From Octopus vulgaris (Eukaryota): a DNA stretch of 64,000 nucleotides. A model generated the notes under the pieces. It was not told where the DNA came from and made no database searches. It was given only the letters and a program-made list of their open reading frames with translations. The position numbers and the translations under genes were made by a program. How positions within the stretch are numbered: the first letter of the stretch is position 1; every line of letters begins with the position of its first letter. The stretch lies in NCBI GenBank assembly GCA_951406725.2, contig OX597819.1, forward strand, positions 10,168,001 to 10,232,000, read 5' to 3'. Below, one piece after another: positions 2,451 through 63,910 of this stretch.

Positions 2451-3085
2451 TACAAGTCATCATATTAACCATAAATAAAACCATGCCCAATTAATATAAC
2501 AGAAATTTGCTTCAAATTCTTAGGTAGAATCAAACAAGCTACAATGTGACTTTATCCAAAAAGGGGAATAGATGGTGAAAGCTATTTATTTTTTCTGGTA
2601 ACATTACTTAAGAGAGGAAAAACAGTCATCTAGAATTTGAAATGAAGATGCAAATGTTTAGAGTTGTTTAACTAAGATACTGTAAATATAAACATTTCAG
2701 GCTAGTGTTTGACAGTTAACTGGGTGAGACTGGGGGAAATATATCAGCCAACACCACTGTCATATCTCCCTTGAGGGAAGAAATACAGTATTCTCCTTTA
2801 ATCTTGCCTATAAACCAGTCTTAGCTTTCAATGTCATTTCTTGGACTGCCTCATCTACTGACTGTACTGTCAATAGTGATATCCAGCCACATATCAACAC
2901 ATGATCATACTAATAGCCAAAAGGTTGAAAATAGATGGGGAAAGCTGAGTAAACAGACACCATGAACTGATTAAAAATGGGCCTAACTTTATCAAGAGAA
3001 TGGCAAGTGAGAAGCATGTGTTTTATCTAGAAAATGAATGAAATTTTCACGTTTAGCAAAAAAATTTAAAAATCTGAAAATAAGT

Positions 3086-3479
3086 CTCTTTACTCTTTTA
3101 CTTGTTTCAGTCATTTGACTGCGGCCATGCTGGAGCACCGCCTTTAGTCAAGCAACTCGACCCCGGGACTTATTCTTTTTGTAAGCCCAGTACTTATTCT
3201 ATCGGTCTCTTTTTGCCGAACTGCTAAGTTACGGGGGACGTAAACACACCAGCATCGAATGTCAAGCAATGCTAGGGGAACAAACACAGACACACATACA
3301 TATATATATATATACGACAGGCTTCTTTCAGTTTCCGTCTACCAAATCTACTCACAAGGCATTGGTCAGCCCGGGGCTATAGCAGAAGACACTTGCCCAA
3401 GATGCCACGCAGTGGGACTGAACCCAGAACCATGTGGTTGGTTAGCAAGCTACTTACCACACAGCCACTCCTGCGCCTA
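3086..3479 (-). mobile_element. SINE family A
   Basis: Full-length reverse copy. Confidence 0.9.
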
Positions 3480-4106
3480 CGAACTTTTTCTATACTTTTT
3501 CTATACTCAACAACCAATACAAGCTATAACATTTCGAGTGGTTAACGGTAACTAAAATCCTTAACCTAATTATTTCAATGAGTTTTATTTCGGGAGGAAA
3601 ATTAAATTGAAAAATACTGAAAATAATGTTTCAAACTTACACACTTCCATTTTTGCTGAAGTGTTCTGATACCAGAGATATCTAAGTTCTGACATGAAAT
3701 TATCAGAGGCTAACTCTAAATTGAAATAAGAGGAATCTTTGTCTCTATTTCTTTAATAAATCAGCATTGGGTAAAATGAGAATGTTAAAATTCGTATTTA
3801 GACTAGAGGCAAGTATTTTACATGTCAAATTAGAAAAGGCAACCAAGCAGAACAAAAAATTCTTTATTAGAATGTTCAATCATCATCATTTCACATTTGC
3901 ATTCCATGACAGCACCAATGAGATCGCAAGACAAGGAAGGAACTCTTGGCTGAGAGAGGGAGTGTGGTGGTAAATACATAAAGGATATGCCTGTATGTAT
4001 GGATGGTAAAGCCTGTCATGCATGTATGTGTGGGTATATATATAAATATACACATATATACATACATATACACGTATATATACATATACACACACATATA
4101 TACATA

Positions 4107-4338
4107 AAGGCGGCGAGCTGGCAGAAACGTTAGCACGCCGGGCGAAATGCGTTGCCATATTTTGTCTGCCGTTACGTTCCGAGTTCAAATTCCGCCGAGG
4201 TCAACTTTGCCTTTCATCCTTCCAGGGTCGTTAAATTAAGTACCAGTTACGCATTGGGGTCGATGTAATCGACTTAATCCGTTTGTCTGTCCTTGTTTGT
4301 CTCCTGTGTGTTTAGCCCCTTGTGAGTAGTAAAGAAAT
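4107..4338 (+). mobile_element. tRNA-derived SINE family B (~230 bp)
   Basis: Head ggcggcgagctggcagaaacgttag, B box gagttcaaattcc, central gaggtcgactttgcctttcatcctttcggggtcga, tail gtaaagaaata. Confidence 0.88.
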
Positions 4339-4984
4339 ATATATACATAAACATGTATATATACATATATATAGATATTGACTAGCTTACGGTAACCTGC
4401 TCTACGCACAGGTAAGAGTGTGGTTGTTACTTTCTGTTGTTTATCACCACATTCTCCCTCTTTGTTTCTTTCTCCTTTCTTTCTCACTTTCCCACTCTCT
4501 TACTCTTCTTTTCTCTCAGACTCTCCCTTGCTTTCTCTTACTCTCTATCTTTCTCTATCTATGTCTCTCCCATTTATAAACAAAAGATCTTGAGTAAGTT
4601 GAGAAAGAAAATATTTTGAAAGATCAGCCATAAATATCAGGCAGTGACACCGGAAAGGTCTGCTTCAAGGCAGACAGCAAAACACTAACATTTAAAAGGG
4701 ACAGACAAACTTGTGAGCTGAATAAAAATAATAAAATATTGGAAACCAAAGTTTGAAGGGATAGAATCTGAGGATAGTAGAGTCACCATGGCTGGCATTT
4801 CTTAACGACAGACAGCAACGTAATGGCAACGGCTGGAGTAAAATTTTGAACTTGATGGAAAAGAAAATGCCTAAACACCCACTCCTGTAAATTTTAATCC
4901 CCTTCCAGCCCCATTTAGACGCCTTTTCACTCTAGGGTACACTAGAAATAAAAGAGGAGTCAGTGAGTGCTCAAATAGTACATA

Positions 4985-16787: not shown

Positions 16788-17498
16788 AGCAAAAAAAAAA
16801 AAAAAAAAAAAAGACTGGTCATAGTTTGAATGGCTTTTTATCATAAGGTCAGCTTGCTTATATATCACAGTTGATCTGGACCAACCCTGTAGTTTATTTG
16901 AACCTAGGAAGCAATACTACTGCAATCACAAGTAGAAAAATTAACCATAACTTGTTCATGTTGTTGATGTCGAATTCTATGTTAGCCTCAAACAGAACTA
17001 CAATTAAATGCATTCCAACTTCATTTAATCCCGACTGTATTATGTAAGATGCGTTTTCCTCTTTTTCAGCTTTAAAGATGGTAGAATGTAATTTGAGGGA
17101 TATTTGGCTGTTATTTCTTGTAAAGCTGACAAGCTCATATGAATTGATAGTAATCTGGACAATTTCTGTTAACTTGGATTTTAAGTACACTTGGGACTGT
17201 TGAATAGCTGGGGCTAACTAAACAACTATGGGATAGATGATTTAAGGTGGTGGAAGATGGGGGAGAATAAGATGAGGGAGTTAAAAAACGTTCATGGGTG
17301 AGGAACAGAAGGCAGAGAGAAAGGGAACAGAAGGGATAAAAGTGGAAAGGAAGTAGAAGAAAGAAGTGTTTTGTTAATAACAAATGTAGAGATTTAACCC
17401 TCCCTGTATCCCCACCCCCCATCTCTCTCACACACATTGAGCTAATAAATAAAATAAAAAGCAAACCAACAAAAGGTGAACAAATCTGATGTAGCAAT

Positions 17499-17970
17499 TT
17501 CTTTATTACCCACAAGGGGCTAAACATAGAGGGGACAAACAAGGACAGACATGGGTATTAAGTCGATTACATCGACCCCAGTGCATAACTGGTACTTAAT
17601 TTATCGATCCCGAAAGGATGAAAGGCAAAGTCGACCTCGGCGGAATTTGAACTCAGAACGTAAAGGCAGACGCAATACCGCTAAACATTTCGCCCGGCGT
17701 GCTAACGTCTCTGCCAGCTCGCCGCCTTTTATGTATACCTATTTCTTTATTACCCACAAGGGGCTAAACATAGAGGGGAAAAACAAGGACAGACATAGGT
17801 ATTAAGTCGATTACATCGACCCCAGTGCAGAACTGGTACTTAATTTATCGACCCCGAAAGGATGAAAGGCAAAGTCAACCTCGGCGGAATTTGAACTCAG
17901 AACGTAACGACAGACGAAATACCGCTAAGCATTTCATCCAGCATGCTAACGTTTCTGCCAGCTCGCCGCC
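17499..17970 (-). mobile_element. Two adjacent full-length SINE B copies
   Basis: 17499-17728 and 17740-17970, both with heads. Confidence 0.88.
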
Positions 17971-18372
17971 ATGCTGTCAATAGAATATTTAGTTAAGTTT
18001 GCTCCTATGCATCAACTCCACTGTCCAATGATACGACATGTTCAGATGAATTAAAGATGAAAATTACACATCAGAGCTCTTACCTCTTACTTATTGAGCA
18101 CATCATATTTATCCTCTACCTTTTTACAGGCTACAAGTGCCACATTTTTTTAACTATTTGGATGATGTGGTGCAAATATTTTATAACAGACAGAATTTTG
18201 GCTCTTGTATGTTTAAAGATGGTTTTTGTTAACTTTAAAATTAATATATAATGTAGCCCCTTTGATGTCAACATGCATGAGACCACCTTCATTTCTTAAA
18301 TACCAAATTTCTTACTTTTACAGGGTTCATATTTAAGTTATATATAACCGATACATAATTTTATGCTAAGAA

Positions 18373-23607: not shown

Positions 23608-24002
23608 CTAGCAGTATCGCCCGGCGTTGCTCGGGTTTGTAAGGGAAATAACTATATAAGCATTTTTAGAGATGTAAAGTATAATAGCCATCTCAATATG
23701 GCTAACCACAAAGGGGGTGTTACTGTAGCTTTTTACGTTCTGAGATTTAATAATAAATTTTTAGAGAGTTACTTCCCTTATATAATAGCAAAAAAATGCA
23801 TTAAAAATGGGAAAAAATGATGGTAAAATTTTTAAAATCATAGACTCATCGTAGATGCGCACTAATACCCAGAAGGGCTCGATATGAATCACGACTATAA
23901 GATACCCGGTTTTGGTTAAACTGCACCGCAAAATGTGGGAGTAGTTAGGAATCTAAATCGTAGGAGACAGACACCACACAACTTTAGTTTTATATATAAA
24001 GA
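23608..24002 (-). mobile_element. Non-autonomous Helitron H1 (variant with 84-bp foreign module)
   Basis: Same termini as 9964-10251 on the minus strand. Confidence 0.85.
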
Positions 24003-25317: not shown

Positions 25318-25716
25318 CTAGCAGTATCGCCCGGCGTTGCTCGGGTTTGTAAGGGAAATAACTATAAAGCATTTTTAGAGAGTTATAGCCAAAACATAGC
25401 AAAAAAAAATGTATTAAAAATGGAAGAAAAATGATGGTAAGTTTCTTTTTAAATCGTTGACTCATCGTAGACATTTTTAGAGAGTTACTTCCCTTATATA
25501 ATAGCGAAAAAAATGCATTAAAATGGAAAAAAATGATGGTAAATTATTTTTAAAATCGTAGACTCATTGTAGACGCACACTAATACCCAGAAGGGCTCGA
25601 TATGAATCACGACTATAAGATACCCGCTTTTGGTTACACTGCACCGCAAAATGTGGGAGTAGTTAGGAATCTAAATTGTAGGAGACAGAACACAACTTGA
25701 CTTTTATATATAAAGA
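25318..25716 (-). mobile_element. Non-autonomous Helitron H1 (internal duplication variant)
   Basis: TC/CTAG termini and hairpin. Confidence 0.85.
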
Positions 25717-27986: not shown

Positions 27987-28402
27987 AGGTGGCGAGCTGG
28001 CAGAAACGTTAGTATGTCGGGCGAAATGCTTATCAGTATTTCGTCTGCCGTTACGTTGTGAGTTCAAATTCCGCCGAGGTCGACTTTGCCTTTCATCCTT
28101 TCGTGGTCGATAAATTAAGTACCAGTTATGCACTGGGGTTGATGTAATCGACTTAATACCTATGTCTGTCCTTGTTTGTCCCTTCTGTGTTTAGCCCCTT
28201 GTGGGTAATAAAGAAATAGGTATTTTGTCTGCCGTTACGTTCTGAGTTCAAATTCCGCCAAGGTCGACTTTGCCTTTCATCCTTTTGGGGCCGATAAATT
28301 AAGTACCAGTTATGCACTGGGGTCGATGTAATCGACTTAATACCCATGTCTGTCCTTGTTTGTCCCCTCTATGTTTAGCCCCTTGTGGGTAATAAAGAAA
28401 TA
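27987..28402 (+). mobile_element. SINE B head-to-tail dimer inserted into an old SINE A
   Basis: Single 22-bp TSD ggtatagcatattgagcaagta (27965-27986, 28403-28424). Confidence 0.88.
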
Positions 28403-29324
28403 GGTATAGCATATTGAGCAAGTATTCTCTACTATAGCTGCAGGCTGGCCAAAGCCTTGTGAGTGGATTTGGTAGACACAAATGAAAAGAAGCCAGTTGG
28501 TTATGTAGACATACGCAAGACTGCAAGAAATATATTGTCATCTGTCACCAGGAAATATTACCTTACTGGAAGGGTTTGTGATGGGGAGGCAAACTGGTCA
28601 TACAAAATCAGCCTCAACAGTTCTGACTGACCCACAAAAACAAGGAAATGTGGAAGTTAAAACCATGATGATGATGATATATATATAGGTGTGTATATAT
28701 AAAGATGTGTCTGTGTGTGTGTATATATGTGTGTGTCTGTGTATGTCACTTTCCGTAATTTACAAAGCCTTTCTGGTTTGTTTAAAAATATTATATGTAG
28801 TATCAGATAGTTAAAGTATATATTCATAAAATTTGGCTGAAATTGATGGGTGAGCATTTGGCCTAATTGGATGTGTATGGAGCCATGCAAGCATTAATAT
28901 GTGGGTTTGATTCTGAGTAGGCTTAGCTCATCATTTTTCAGTCAGTTGCTTATATAAAATGTCACTTTAAATTGGAGAATATATATTATATATTATTATA
29001 TAGTTATTATTGTACTAAGAGGCTTTCATAGTTGCTTTCTCTCCATAACTTACAAAGCCTTTCAGGTTTGTTTACAAATATATGTAGTTATGTATGTATG
29101 TGTATATACATCCCTTAGCATAGTGGTTTAGCAAAAGAGACTGATAGAACAAGTACTAGGATTTAAGTACTAGGGTCAAATCATTTGACTACAGTCACTC
29201 AAGGTGGTGCCCCAGCATGGTTGCAGTACAAAGACTGAAACTAGTGAAAAGAAAACAAAAGCAAAAAATATAACACCAGTTTAGTAATATACACCTAAAT
29301 AGTAAAAAGAAATTTAATAACAAA

Positions 29325-32909: not shown

Positions 32910-33303
32910 CTAGCAGTATCGCCCGGCGTTGCTCGGGTTTGTAAGGGAAATAACTATGTAAGCATTTTTAGAGATGTAAAGTATAATAGCCATCTCAATA
33001 TGGCTAACCACAAAGGGGGGGGTTACAGTAGCTTTTTACGTTCTGAGATTTAATAATAAATTTTTAGAGAGTTACTTCCCTTATATATGCCAAAAATGCA
33101 TTAAAAATGGGAAAATTGATGGTAAATTTTTTTTTAATCGTAGACTCATCGCAGACGCGCGCTAATACCCAGAAGGGCTCGATATGAATCACGACTATAA
33201 GATACCCGGTTTTGGTTAAACTGCACCGCAAAATGTGGGAGTAGTTAGGAATCTAAATCGTAGGAGACAGACACTCACACAACCTCTTTTTTATATATAA
33301 AGA
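32910..33303 (-). mobile_element. Non-autonomous Helitron H1 (variant with foreign module)
   Basis: TC/CTAG termini. Same internal module as the 23608 copy. Confidence 0.85.
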
Positions 33304-34104: not shown

Positions 34105-34121
34105 TTAAACATTGTAATTCA

Positions 34122-34739
34122 TTAGAAATTTACTATTTTTAAATCTCACAACAAGAGATATTCAGCAACAGTACTTTGGAGTAAAGATTATTTGCCAACA
34201 TAACATGGCAGTCCTGGTTTAGGATAAATATTATAATTTAGCCCAAGGACACATTGTCTCCAGCTGGCTATAAGGCACGATCTGCTTCCTTATATTTTTA
34301 AACAAGGGAATCTAGCACCCCCACTCAGCTCAAAACAATATCTCTGTATCGCAATTTCTGAGGCTAAATTACAGCAACATTCGTCCTAAACCAGGACTGG
34401 CATGTTATGTTGGCAAACAATCTTTACTCCAAAGTACTTTTGTGAGATTTAAAAATAGTAATTTTCTAATTTATAGATCAGTGACTAGTTCTCACTTTGA
34501 AAACTATATATTTTGAATGGGAATTTGGTAGCACCACCTCTAGCCAAACAATTATTCTGTGCTGATGAAGAGAAATAACCCAGAAATCGCAATACACAGA
34601 TATTGTTTTGAGCTGAGTTGGGGAGCTAGATTCCCTTGTTCAAAAATATAAGGACACAGATTGTGTCATATAGCCAGCTGGAGATGATGTCTCCTGGGGC
34701 TAAATTACAGCAACATTCGTCCTAAACCAGGACTGCCAT
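34122..34739 (+). mobile_element. Hammerhead-bearing non-autonomous retroelement (Penelope pLTR/retrozyme-like): inverted arm plus permuted ~336-bp monomer
   Basis: 38-bp direct repeat at 34362 and 34698 (period 336). 34122-34360 is an inverted copy of downstream sequence. Hammerhead motif inside the monomer. Confidence 0.65.
34556..34600 (+). ncRNA. Minimal type I hammerhead ribozyme-like motif (stem II degenerate)
   Basis: TCTGTG-CTGATGA-agagaaataaccca-GAAA-T-CGCA-ATA-CACAGA. Perfect 6-bp stem I and conserved core. The inverted partial copy near 34341-34360 implies a CGCG palindromic loop III. Confidence 0.6.
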
Positions 34740-35354
34740 ATTTTAGTATATATACCTTATCAGTAGTTCTTCCTAAGTTCTATATACTCTAGGAACGATA
34801 TATTTTCCTAATTTATCCAGTACAACCCTTAAACAAGTAAATAGTATTTTCCTAAACAACAGATCCACTTATTTTGGTTAGTGACTTATTCACAAATATA
34901 CCAACACTCGCGCCTGAGGGTAATATTCTCTGGTAATGCACAAAAGCCCTTTTCAGAGTTATTTACTTTCAATTGTTATTATCTCATATCTGATTCGCCT
35001 GTTATTACGTAACATGCTTCACGATTTTTCTATACATACCTTAGTATTTCCTCCTAAGTTCTATATACTATGGGAATGCATTAAAGCCTTTTTGGGGGCT
35101 ACTTTATTTGAATTCTTACTATTTGGGTAACTAATTTCATGTTATTACATAACCAACTTCACAATTTGGGTATACATAACTTATCGGGAATTCCTAAAAA
35201 CAAGATCCTGTGTAACACAGTTCAGTATTCTCTGTAAATGCACAAAAACTGTTTTAAGGCCTACATACTTTGTATTGTTGTTATTGGATAATTATGAGGA
35301 TGCAATCAAGGGATAAGCTGCACTTTCCCGGGAATTAATGGGTACATCAGCAAG

Positions 35355-37045: not shown

Positions 37046-38154
37046 GAATAAAAGGATAAAAAAGAATAATCCTTAAACTTGTAATGAAAACAAAAGAAGA
37101 AAAGAAGCTATTCTGTGGCTTTATGAAAATTTTACATTTTTGTTCAAGAAACTTTCCAAGAATTTTCTTTCTAAATAACTACTTGCTTGGTAAAGACACA
37201 TACAAGTTCTTGGAACTTGGAAAGCAAGATGGGAAGAATGGGCCCATTGTCGACTTACTCACTCGGGAACATTATAAAATCACGGATTTTTACAAAAATA
37301 AGAGGGGAAATGGAAACAGAAGTCTATGAGATCCAAGGTGAAATGATAAAATAAGTATGACTTGTGGAGTATGTAAAGAAAGGTCTTGTGACCAGCAAAT
37401 ATTTACAAATAATGGGTTGCGAGAAGATGAAGATTTACATATGAGGGGCTTCAATTACACTTATTTTTTTCAGTTGTCCTTTCCTGTCGAGTTTGAAGAT
37501 AAAATTCTTAAAGTCATAACTTTTATGTCTGGAGCATGAATATTTTGATGTGGGAAAATGAAATATGTAGTATTTAAAAGAAACAAAAAACATAAATTTA
37601 GATTAATTTTAGATTGCTTCTGATCTGTTGAAAGGACTCCATGCATTTATTTAATTTTTAACTAAAATCCAAAGAGTAAGATGAAAATGAAAGATAAGCA
37701 AAAATATCTAGTCTTGTAATAACATGGAAGAGAAAAGATATGACTTTGATTAGCAACTGCAATACGTAGCAGACCAGTAAGTAAACTTACAGCATATCTA
37801 ATGGTAATTAGATAATTATAAAAACCAGAAATTAAATACATATCCATTAATTAATAAATGAGGTGACTCACATAGAATGACATTTAAATATAATTCTGTA
37901 CAGTAAATTAGAACAAAATTAGAAAGTTAATTTCCAAGTTCAGTAGAAATTATAGAGAAGTTGCATACCTATCAACCTGCTTACTACATCTCTTTAAATA
38001 TTCTTTAAATGACAGTTTATTATGCATAAGCATTACATAACATTTTAACATTAAAGATTCCTTTGCTATTGCATAATTTAAGTGCATTACAACACTTTAA
38101 AAGTGTACCAAGATCAAAAGAGATAAAATAGCTTTTATGTCAAAATACTAAATC

Positions 38155-38540
38155 ATGTAAAGTATAGAAGCCGTCTTAACATGGCTAACCACATAGGGGA
38201 GGGGGTGTTACTGTAGCTTTATAGCCCCAAGAGATCATCGTCTCCAGCTGGCTTTAGACACCATTTCAGTGCCCTTGAAGTATTTGCAAAGGGAGGCCAT
38301 CCCTTCCTCGCAAGCCTGAGTGATACGCTCGGACTTGCGAGGAAGGGATGGCCTCCCTTTGCAAATACTTCAAGGGCACTGAAATGGTGTCTAAAGCCAG
38401 CTGGAGACGATGATCTCTTGGGGCTATAAAGCTACAGTAACACCCCCTCCCCTATGTGGTTAGCCATGTTAAGATGGCTTCTATACTTTACATTATCGAG
38501 CGATTACTGTTTCAATCTCATCCTGAGATTTAATAATGCT
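38155..38540. mobile_element. ~339-bp near-perfect fold-back insertion with 13-bp TSD, same family as the hammerhead elements
   Basis: 38155-38493 is self-complementary almost to its centre (~38324). TSD tactaaatcatgt at 38146-38158 and 38541-38553. Confidence 0.85.
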
Positions 38541-39227
38541 TACTAAATCATGTTTAATAAAAAAAAAGTAAATAAATATTAAGCGTATAGCAGTAATAAG
38601 AAGCATAAACAAAATGATAGTTTGAGCTTGCTGTTTAGCTCCAGGTCAGCCATAGCGAAGCAGACTTCTGATCAAAAAGTATTTCAACTTTGGACATTCC
38701 ATTTATGGAATAACTATCAATGAAGTATTGAGGACTATATAGTTGGCTTAAAACAGTGAACTGTCAGGCTATTCACATGAACATGTCTGGTTTGGTGTCC
38801 TATCGTTCTGAGTTCTTATTCTGCAAACTAAGTTCAAAATCTAAAAATCCTGTTCTGAACAACAAAGATCCACAGGACAGATTCTTATCCAGTTATTGTT
38901 ACGGCACCAAATGAATGAGAGATAACACTCCTCTTGAATAAGACATTGATTTATCTGGAATTTTCCTCAGAGGAGAAACAATTTGATAGTGTAGACTATG
39001 TTGTTGTTGCTGCCAACAGCAAGAAAAAAATAAAAAATCATATGCCTGCAAAATTCAATTGGAGACATGCAACATTGATACCCTATTTGATAAGTTGCTG
39101 TAAATAGAAGCCAATCCTCTCTCAAATCAAACCTTATTGTCTTACAAAAAAAAGGAAGGCTGTGGGCACTGTAGTCATGGCTAGAATGTCTTTGATTCAT
39201 GGATCTACTTGATCAGGGTTGATATGA

Positions 39228-48336: not shown

Positions 48337-48468
48337 TATTTCATCTTCTAAAGGCAAATTCACTACAGTTACCATGGAGAAAAAAAAATTCTCTCTTATA
48401 GTAAAAAGTAAACAACAATTTTTTTCTCCATGGTAATTGCAGTGAATTTGCCTTTAGAAGATGAAATA
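48337..48468. repeat. Inverted repeat/MITE-like, ~52-bp arms
   Basis: tatttcatcttctaaaggcaaattcact...ccatggag is mirrored by ctccatgg...agtgaatttgcctttagaagatgaaata. TA at both ends. Confidence 0.8.
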
Positions 48469-48783: not shown

Positions 48784-48899
48784 TCTTTATATATAAAAGA
48801 GAAGTTGTGTGTCTGTCTCCTACGATTTAGATTCCTAACTACTCCCACATTTTGCGGTGCAGTTTAACCAAAACCGGGTATCTTATAGTCGTGATTCAT
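48784..48899 (+). mobile_element. Helitron H1, 5' fragment
   Basis: First ~116 bp of H1, broken off where the hammerhead element begins. Confidence 0.8.
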
Positions 48900-49379
48900 T
48901 ATATATGTTACAAATTAGAACAAACAGTAAAAGGTTTTCATTATAGTACTCAGAGTTTTGAATACTGTCAACTCAACGTGACAGTCCCCTAAGGGAATTA
49001 CATCACCGTCATTTAGCCCTAGGAAACATCGACGTTTCCTGTCGGATTTGACACATTTTCTGTGTCCTTATATTTGCAAAGGGGAGGCAATCACCCCCGC
49101 CAGCTGGGACTAGCACCTGAAGACATATGTTTCTGAGTGTATTGCTTGTCATCAGTCCAGGGTAGTCAGTCTCACTCGCTGAGATGACTGCAACCTCTAT
49201 GCAAATATATCCTATTTTCAGTAAAATTTATTTACTGATCACCAAAATTAGAAATATTGAATTTCTAAATGTCTCAGAGAGAGAGACATGGGCGGTGACG
49301 GAGCGATATAGTGGTTGTATACTGTCAACTCAACAAAAAATGTGTCAAAGCCGACAGGAAACGTCGATGTTTCCTAGGG

Positions 49380-49382
<3 letters not shown>
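48900..49382 (-). mobile_element. Hammerhead-bearing non-autonomous retroelement related to 34122-34739
   Basis: Direct repeat atactgtcaactcaac at 48962 and 49319 (period 357). Inverted pair 49014-49059/49337-49382. Shares the atttagccc-aggaaacatcg and tgtgtccttatattt motifs with the 34 kb and 38 kb elements. Confidence 0.65.
49116..49161 (-). ncRNA. Minimal type I hammerhead ribozyme-like motif
   Basis: Minus strand CCTGGA-CTGATGA-caagcaatacactca-GAAA-C-ATAT-GTC-TTCAGG. Stem I of 6 bp (one G-U), palindromic loop III, canonical GUC triplet. Stem II is decayed. Confidence 0.7.
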
Positions 49383-49439
<57 letters not shown>

Positions 49440-63687: not shown

Positions 63688-63733
63688 AACACAATGTTTC
63701 GGCTGATATACCCTCCAGCTTTCATCAGGTGTC
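63688..63733 (-). ncRNA. Minimal hammerhead-like motif, inverted copy
   Basis: Reverse-complement copy of 63865-63910: GACAC-CTGATGA-aAGCTG...CAGCC-GAAAC-ATT-GTGTT. Confidence 0.55.
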
Positions 63734-63780
63734 CTGGGGAAATTTTGAACCTGGGTTCTCATTCCTAAGGTATTTTTTGA

Positions 63781-63814
<34 letters not shown>

Positions 63815-63864
63815 ACATCGAAAAATACTTTAGGAATGAGAACCCAAGTTGGAAATTTATCCAA

Positions 63865-63910
63865 GACACCTGATGAAGGCTGGAGGGTATATCAGCCGAA
63901 ACATTGTGTT
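63865..63910 (+). ncRNA. Minimal hammerhead-like motif (Penelope pLTR type)
   Basis: GACAC-CTGATGA-a-GGCTG-gagggtatat-CAGCC-GAAA-C-ATT-GTGTT. Stem I, stem II and core are present. There is an extra A after the core, and stem III is minimal. Confidence 0.6.

Follow-up and report, generated by a model that had tools for sequence, protein, structure and literature searches.

The element at positions 48962–49385 of the window (the whole 64-kb stretch of Octopus vulgaris DNA that we analysed) consists of a 372-nt copy of a repeat unit of ~354 nt, which we call family A, and a 52-nt inverted arm. We consider it very probable that this is a decayed copy of a dispersed non-coding repeat with a covarying hammerhead fold, and that such copies are made in trans by a Penelope-like reverse transcriptase (RT) from an RNA that is circular or else uncleaved and multimeric. 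Family A is one of six related families in the genome. Judged by sequence, the assignment of these families to the known class of non-LTR retrozymes is well supported, as they show every feature of the class that can be tested.

Results

Layout of the element and its flanks

The main segment lies on the minus strand at 48962..49333. It begins at unit position 147, crosses the predicted cut site and stops at 161; it holds one unit of ~354 nt plus a terminal redundancy of 16 nt and is 91% identical to a natural tandem unit. A previous reading of the window, made from the letters alone (the sequence-only reading), had described a direct repeat of period 357, and we found the 16 identical nucleotides at 48962 and 49319. 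A 16-nt repeat is weak evidence by itself, but the family also has a natural head-to-tail dimer with a period of 354 nt. The inverted arm described in the same reading was recovered as well (49011–49063 against 49333–49385; 53 nt, 94%). This arm is 5'-truncated, occupies 49334..49385 on the plus strand, corresponds to unit positions 61–112 and stands head-to-head with the main segment. It is an exception among the arms in that it ends at 112, where it abuts a (TA)n run (49381..49438). This run at the outer end of the arm is the likely target; no target duplication was found at the 49 kb copy.

The element does not extend to 48900, where the reading had placed its start. Positions 48899–48963 (minus strand) lie outside the family-A unit and belong to another hammerhead-like repeat, family D, of which they are the 3' half; this half shares an AT overlap of 2–3 nt with the family-A 3' end. 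We rejected this flank as a Penelope tail of the family-A element because its sequence is that of family D. In family D (468 first-look candidates) there are inverted arms and a separate hammerhead-like motif, whose stem II has 6 bp and whose loop 2 is long. The family-A copy is joined to this repeat just before its GAAA, which could reflect a nested insertion with a deletion or template switching.

Other repeats were seen in the window. One dispersed repeat of ~250 nt occurs at 32974–33038 and 23672–23735, also at 25443 and 29425, and as a truncated copy beside the family-A element, up to 48899; its initial piece matches the retrozyme body profile (E about 1e-8). At 63693–63905 and 48347–48458 there are inverted repeats that are almost perfect and AT-rich in the centre; the Rfam miRNA matches at these places are below threshold. 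SINE-like families with microsatellite tails are abundant (e.g. 3080–3480, 4100–4340, 17486–17973 and 28036–28407), and some of them form tandem pairs with a period of 184 or 244.

The hammerhead of the 49 kb copy

The minus-strand GUC hammerhead that had been proposed is present as a type I motif at 49112..49167 (minus strand; core C3 at 49155). It comprises stem Ib, a 3x1 internal loop, a 6-bp stem Ia, the core, stem II and a 2-bp stem III with a palindromic loop, and the GUC cut is predicted between 49122 and 49121. When both strands of the window were scanned strictly for the core plus a perfect 6-bp stem I, two loci were returned, 49161(-) and 34556(+). Rfam models matched the window 49 times at E<=1, none of the matches being a hammerhead, and neither the 49 kb nor the 34 kb motif was called. 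On the genome, RF00163 gave 6 matches from 73 scored candidates, none of which has a hammerhead belonging to the six families. These RF00163 matches did reveal a further hammerhead family, which has a ~77-nt insertion in stem II and is unrelated to the six (loci L139, L140 and L143).

The 49 kb copy carries a private stem II change at 49147, where it differs from family A; the family base predominates in public contigs (four runs, contigs of unconfirmed type). None of the public runs listed for the sequence is recorded as RNA. In the family-A majority, stem II has 3 bp above a C.A mismatch at 10.1–11.1. Thus, reverting the change at 49147 would still leave the copy without a closing pair. The 10.1–11.1 pair is absent in families A and B. 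The 49 kb copy is probably a dead or weak ribozyme. For a family-A monomer, the hammerhead conformation differs from the minimum-energy fold (-4.3 vs -16.2 kcal/mol). Animal hammerheads that act as dimers have a short palindromic stem III (PMC4209133, PMC7229834). Head-to-tail copies with one hammerhead per unit do exist in the families, whereas the 49 kb copy has a single hammerhead.

Families and copies in the genome

We searched a genome of 2.8 Gb in 227 contigs. Family-A copies were found on many contigs at 89–95% identity, in counts that are lower bounds because 40 of 2270 first-look candidates were scored. A 34-nt intact core pattern matched exactly at 44 places (control, 0). The A unit is non-coding, with a length of 354 nt and a GC content of 0.43, which falls within the ~150–450 nt and GC under 50% of retrozymes. 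No long ORF was found in the unit; Met-initiated frames reach at most 53 aa in A and 28 aa in B. CpG-type changes account for 61 of 326 substitutions, at 22 of 235 positions.

Two relatives lie in the same window. The first, from family B, is at 34121..34742 on the plus strand (main segment 34358–34742, inverted arm 34121–34358) and has its hammerhead, with an AUA cut triplet, at 34550–34604 (plus strand). The sequence-only reading had claimed that the 34 kb and 49 kb elements share body motifs and place the ribozyme equivalently. In our alignment, 173 of 274 positions agree (63%, E 5e-19) and the ribozymes are in register. That reading had also made itself depend on a significant alignment of the two bodies and on the pairing of stem II; the bodies align significantly, and stem II is paired in the family majority. 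The second relative, from family C (38154..38551, plus strand), is a fold-back of two 5'-truncated arms without a hammerhead.

Through this fold-back and through diverged matches in flanks, we found four further families, C, E, G and H. Together with A and B they share a collinear order, at 46–62% identity. Natural head-to-tail periods are 354 nt (A), 350 nt (B), 362 nt (E) and 352 nt (G); the family-A dimer was seen in one of 30 loci, head-to-tail copies also occur in B, E and G, and no head-to-tail dimer was seen in C or H among the sampled loci. Family E appears young, with matches at 95–98% identity and 169 exact matches to a 35-nt hammerhead pattern. Subfamilies of C differ by a compensated change in stem II and by another in the stem III palindrome.

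Covariation of the hammerhead stems

It had been claimed that stem I and loop III differ between the 34 kb and 49 kb copies and still pair. The pairing is indeed kept, but loop III of the 34 kb copy reads CGCA, and CGCG is only the family majority. The further claim, that this covariation indicates selection, was overstated for A and B alone, which provide a single phylogenetic contrast: two-sided changes are present in 5 of 11 pairs, a number reached by 128 of 500 shuffles. Over six families the evidence is strong. We compared column majorities drawn from 28/30 A, 25/30 B, 14/25 C and 14/14 E, G and H loci, leaving out same-place duplicates and copies truncated before the hammerhead. With stem Ib offsets set by eye after seeing the data, only six families and no tree-aware statistics, 86 of 90 stem cells are paired, and 12 of 15 pairs are fully paired in all six families and show two-sided change. 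When partners were slid by 1–3 columns, none of the 15 pairs passed in any control; in the background, 1.7% of 12,289 body column pairs passed.

Each of the six families retains the catalytic core, the 3:8 pair and a triplet that could be cleaved (GUC or AUA). In C and E the core has U3-A8 instead of C3-G8, a variant that has been described in PLE hammerheads (PMC4209133). The type I core with three helices that is expected of non-LTR retrozymes is present, with A and B lacking the 10.1–11.1 pair. Among 12 distinct natural sequences, two-sided change was seen in all 10 counted pairs and in at most 3 when slid; this count covers stem I and the 3:8 pair only, because MAFFT placed the family A stem II one column out of register. 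Inserted copies decay: the core and stem III are kept in 23 of 31 family-A hammerheads, and the core, stem III and stem II in 19 of 31. Thus, selection acted on the source RNAs and not on the 49 kb insertion.

RNA structure outside the ribozyme

In RNAfold predictions for all six families, the hammerhead region sits at the tip of a long helix with arms ~50 nt upstream and ~46 nt downstream. In the 49 kb element, the predicted upstream arm is at 49168..49217 and the downstream arm, which contains the tatattt...aaggg motif, at 49066..49111 (both minus strand). The own-family duplex of the family-A arms has an energy of -45.2 kcal/mol, and none of 200 shuffles was as stable. With stems Ia and Ib excluded, the best partner of the upstream arm was the downstream arm of its own family in six of six cases (z -5.9 to -7.7; 0/200 shuffles). 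As this helix spans the cut site, its formation should require an RNA that is either uncut, as in a precursor, or re-ligated into a circle. Co-evolution of a helix across the cut site suggests that selection acts on an RNA whose cut site is joined or uncut. When four natural units were folded as circles, z was -4.1 to -6.3 (40 shuffles each). We rejected the idea that the TATA-like motif upstream of the hammerhead is mainly a promoter, since it makes up one arm of the long helix; it may also have a promoter role.

Several hairpins are found in the body (all minus strand). Two that are kept across families lie within 49014..49066, at 49050–49066 and about 49014–49045, and the second of these shows two-sided changes. 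A conserved hairpin at 48965..48984 immediately precedes the first preferred 3' end, at about +174 relative to the cut. Within 49218..49287, the hairpin at 49271–49287 lies on the 5' side of the second preferred 3' end (about +229, which is 49247 in this copy), and 49218–49238 forms another conserved hairpin.

Insertion footprints

The 3' ends of the copies fall at 155–185 or 210–245 from the cut site in 29 of 30 A and 24 of 28 B loci, in windows drawn after seeing the A and B data. A conserved hairpin directly precedes each preferred end. Inverted arms have outer ends that do not depend on the query, and 50 of 60 of them lie in these two windows as well; the main ends of C, E, G and H are query-biased, and the C and H references are shorter than the unit. 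At 18 of 30 A loci, a TA run is present after the 3' end. Of 86 loci, 15 have target duplications of >=7 nt, compared with 2.1% of 1990 mismatched pairs; two of the 15 are AT-repeat-like and two share one flank, and about 12 are left once the two AT-repeat cases and one of the flank-sharing pair are removed. A minority of copies have target duplications of 8–14 nt.

Partial tandems, an adjacent inverted 5'-truncated copy, an optional tail, AT-rich targets and 8–10-bp duplications are insertion marks of Penelope-like elements (PLEs; PMC8557442, PMC3846280). The inverted 5'-truncated arm and the optional tail are both present in our units, with a tail of about 55 nt against the 30–40 nt described for PLEs (PMC8557442). 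The PLE protein of anole (PAc) cuts AT-rich DNA, extends both strands and, in vitro, initiates at two internal positions that delimit the tail (PMC11167929).

The ends of the copies are variable and circularly permuted, and fixed terminal inverted repeats are absent. Both points argue against a MITE or SINE-like repeat with a chance match to a hammerhead. The genome is rich in repeats and Rfam calls no hammerhead in the window, as such a repeat would predict, but the six-family covariation disappears entirely in the slid controls. We regard this explanation as largely refuted already and exceedingly improbable.

Copies that cross the cut site are common among the best-scoring matches, which favour full-length copies. 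A cleaved linear monomer is excluded as the template of these copies because they span the cut. Minor variants are shared within a locus more than between loci (19% vs 8% in A; 11% vs 6% in B), a pattern that fits circular and multimeric templates alike and cannot separate them. It is conceivable that the template is an uncleaved linear read-through RNA, that no circle is involved and that the hammerhead, although conserved as a fold, cuts seldom or not at all. The long helix would form equally well in an uncleaved precursor, and A and B lack the 10.1–11.1 pair. Furthermore, 5' truncations, looked at as a sign of cleavage in vivo, are not concentrated at the cut site: 6 of 58 fall within -15..+5, about what an even spread predicts. 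For PAc insertion in vitro, cleavage is dispensable and unprocessed RNA is the main substrate (PMC11167929). In Xenopus, one of nine retrozyme dimers cleaved in vitro and the other eight did not (bioRxiv 10.64898/2026.07.22.740005). However, none of the six families has lost the core, the triplet (GUC or AUA) or the 3:8 pair, which in two of them shows a compensated swap; the unit length is constant at 350–362 nt in the four families with measured periods; and circles are the main form of comparable animal elements (PMC7229834). On balance, we think this reading unlikely.

A possible Penelope partner in the genome

No PLE ORF was found in the 64 kb window, and none was found upstream on the same strand in 127 element loci. 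We rejected the family-A element as an autonomous PLE, since it lacks an RT + GIY-YIG ORF bounded by the repeat. In a search for GIY-YIG, in which 150 of 6136 candidates were scored, many matches lay in open frames of 781 aa that recur at many loci. Two proteins were tested, and both have RT and GIY-YIG domains. The 781-aa protein has a Cys motif between these domains, which marks the Neptune and Nematis clades (PMC8557442). Its elements have their own 3' hammerhead motifs, TA-run ends and an optional tail of ~30 nt. One such frame (L118:1745–4087) is 95–99% identical among several copies and has a U3-A8 hammerhead motif about 0.6–1.1 kb downstream. From its sequence, this element looks recently active.

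The sequence-only reading had suggested looking for a Penelope ORF flanked by these units, and none appeared in the sampled loci. The six-family profile detected no unit-related terminal repeat on Penelope loci in 60 partly overlapping GIY-YIG stretches drawn from the 6136 candidates; the matches it did give in these stretches are separate insertions. These results bear on the possibility that our units are 5'-truncated pseudo-LTR (pLTR) stumps of an autonomous PLE outside the sample. pLTRs are known for inverted arms, an optional tail, TA targets and a hammerhead (PMC8557442, PMC3846280), the scored candidates were 150 of 6136, and of 57 retrozyme families in Xenopus, 24 match known elements, 21 of which are PLEs (bioRxiv 10.64898/2026.07.22.740005). 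On the other hand, copies that exceed one unit repeat the unit and do not enter an ORF, which makes such an origin less likely. In addition, a Penelope fragment lies within about 1.5 kb of only 3 of 127 element loci, each time on the opposite strand, and the long helix joins the end of the unit to its start. We therefore consider an origin as pLTR stumps quite improbable.

Discussion

We propose a model in which the non-coding unit is mobilised in trans by a Penelope protein, as the insertion footprints suggest. Source loci would be transcribed, and the hammerheads would cut, probably as dimers through the palindromic stem III, to free unit-length RNA that a host ligase may circularise. Few copies should be able to release a circle, because most hold one hammerhead. 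A Penelope-like protein would then nick AT-rich DNA, and cDNA synthesis would start inside the RNA, just 3' of one of the two conserved hairpins. The RT would run back through the joined cut site, giving copies of 1 to 3 units, and priming from the opposite strand would give the inverted arm.

More tentatively, and with less than even confidence, we suggest that these circular-RNA parasites may recruit a Neptune-type Penelope protein by shape and not by shared sequence, with the two hairpins setting the starts and the RT rolling through the ligated hammerhead junction. If this is true, the young family E and the open 781-aa ORFs would allow, in one genome, a direct test of the mobilising enzyme and of the circular template.

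Our literature search, which covered the main texts of papers that are largely free of subscription, found no publication on such elements in cephalopods, and the main text of a recent octopus repeat annotation does not mention hammerheads, ribozymes or retrozymes (PMC13282606). The involvement of Penelope in retrozyme mobility has already been proposed (bioRxiv 10.64898/2026.07.22.740005, PMC7229834).

The octopus families resemble animal non-LTR retrozymes (Cervera and de la Pena, 2020; PMC7229834) in having a type I hammerhead in a unit of 170–400 nt without an ORF, a GC content under 50% (0.39–0.43 here), target duplications of >4 bp when present, a highly paired predicted circle and coexistence with PLEs. 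The retrozymes of axolotl are similar in their units of 330–350 nt, in having a loop 3 that is palindromic and in the mismatched base of helix II (PMC7229834); the mismatch is U.U there and C.A or A.G here. The octopus elements differ in that most are dispersed copies of 1–1.5 units, with dimers and trimers rare in our sample, and in having inverted arms and two preferred 3' ends, neither of which is described in the available text of that paper (PMC7229834).

With vertebrate retrozymes (Li, Clavereau and Pollet; bioRxiv 10.64898/2026.07.22.740005) they have in common several families per genome, many monomers and PLEs of the Neptune/Poseidon type. In that work, 'active' denotes two complete tandem hammerheads, and the 49 kb copy does not qualify. 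With PLE insertions they have in common partial tandems, an inverted truncated copy, an optional tail between two starts, AT-rich targets, 8–10-bp duplications and the U3-A8 core variant, but they carry no RT/EN ORF (PMC8557442, PMC3846280, PMC11167929, PMC4209133). The hammerhead also differs: it is of the canonical type with an internal loop in stem I, whereas PLE hammerheads have the minimal form (PMC4209133). This superfamily thus provides natural hammerhead variants with and without the 10.1–11.1 pair and with both 3:8 pairs. Finally, the link between retrozymes and Penelope in vertebrates had come from co-occurrence and from pLTR similarity, that is, shared terminal sequence (bioRxiv 10.64898/2026.07.22.740005); here, with no pLTR homology in the sampled loci, the superfamily adds both a helix that co-evolves over the cut site and insertion footprints on non-coding units.
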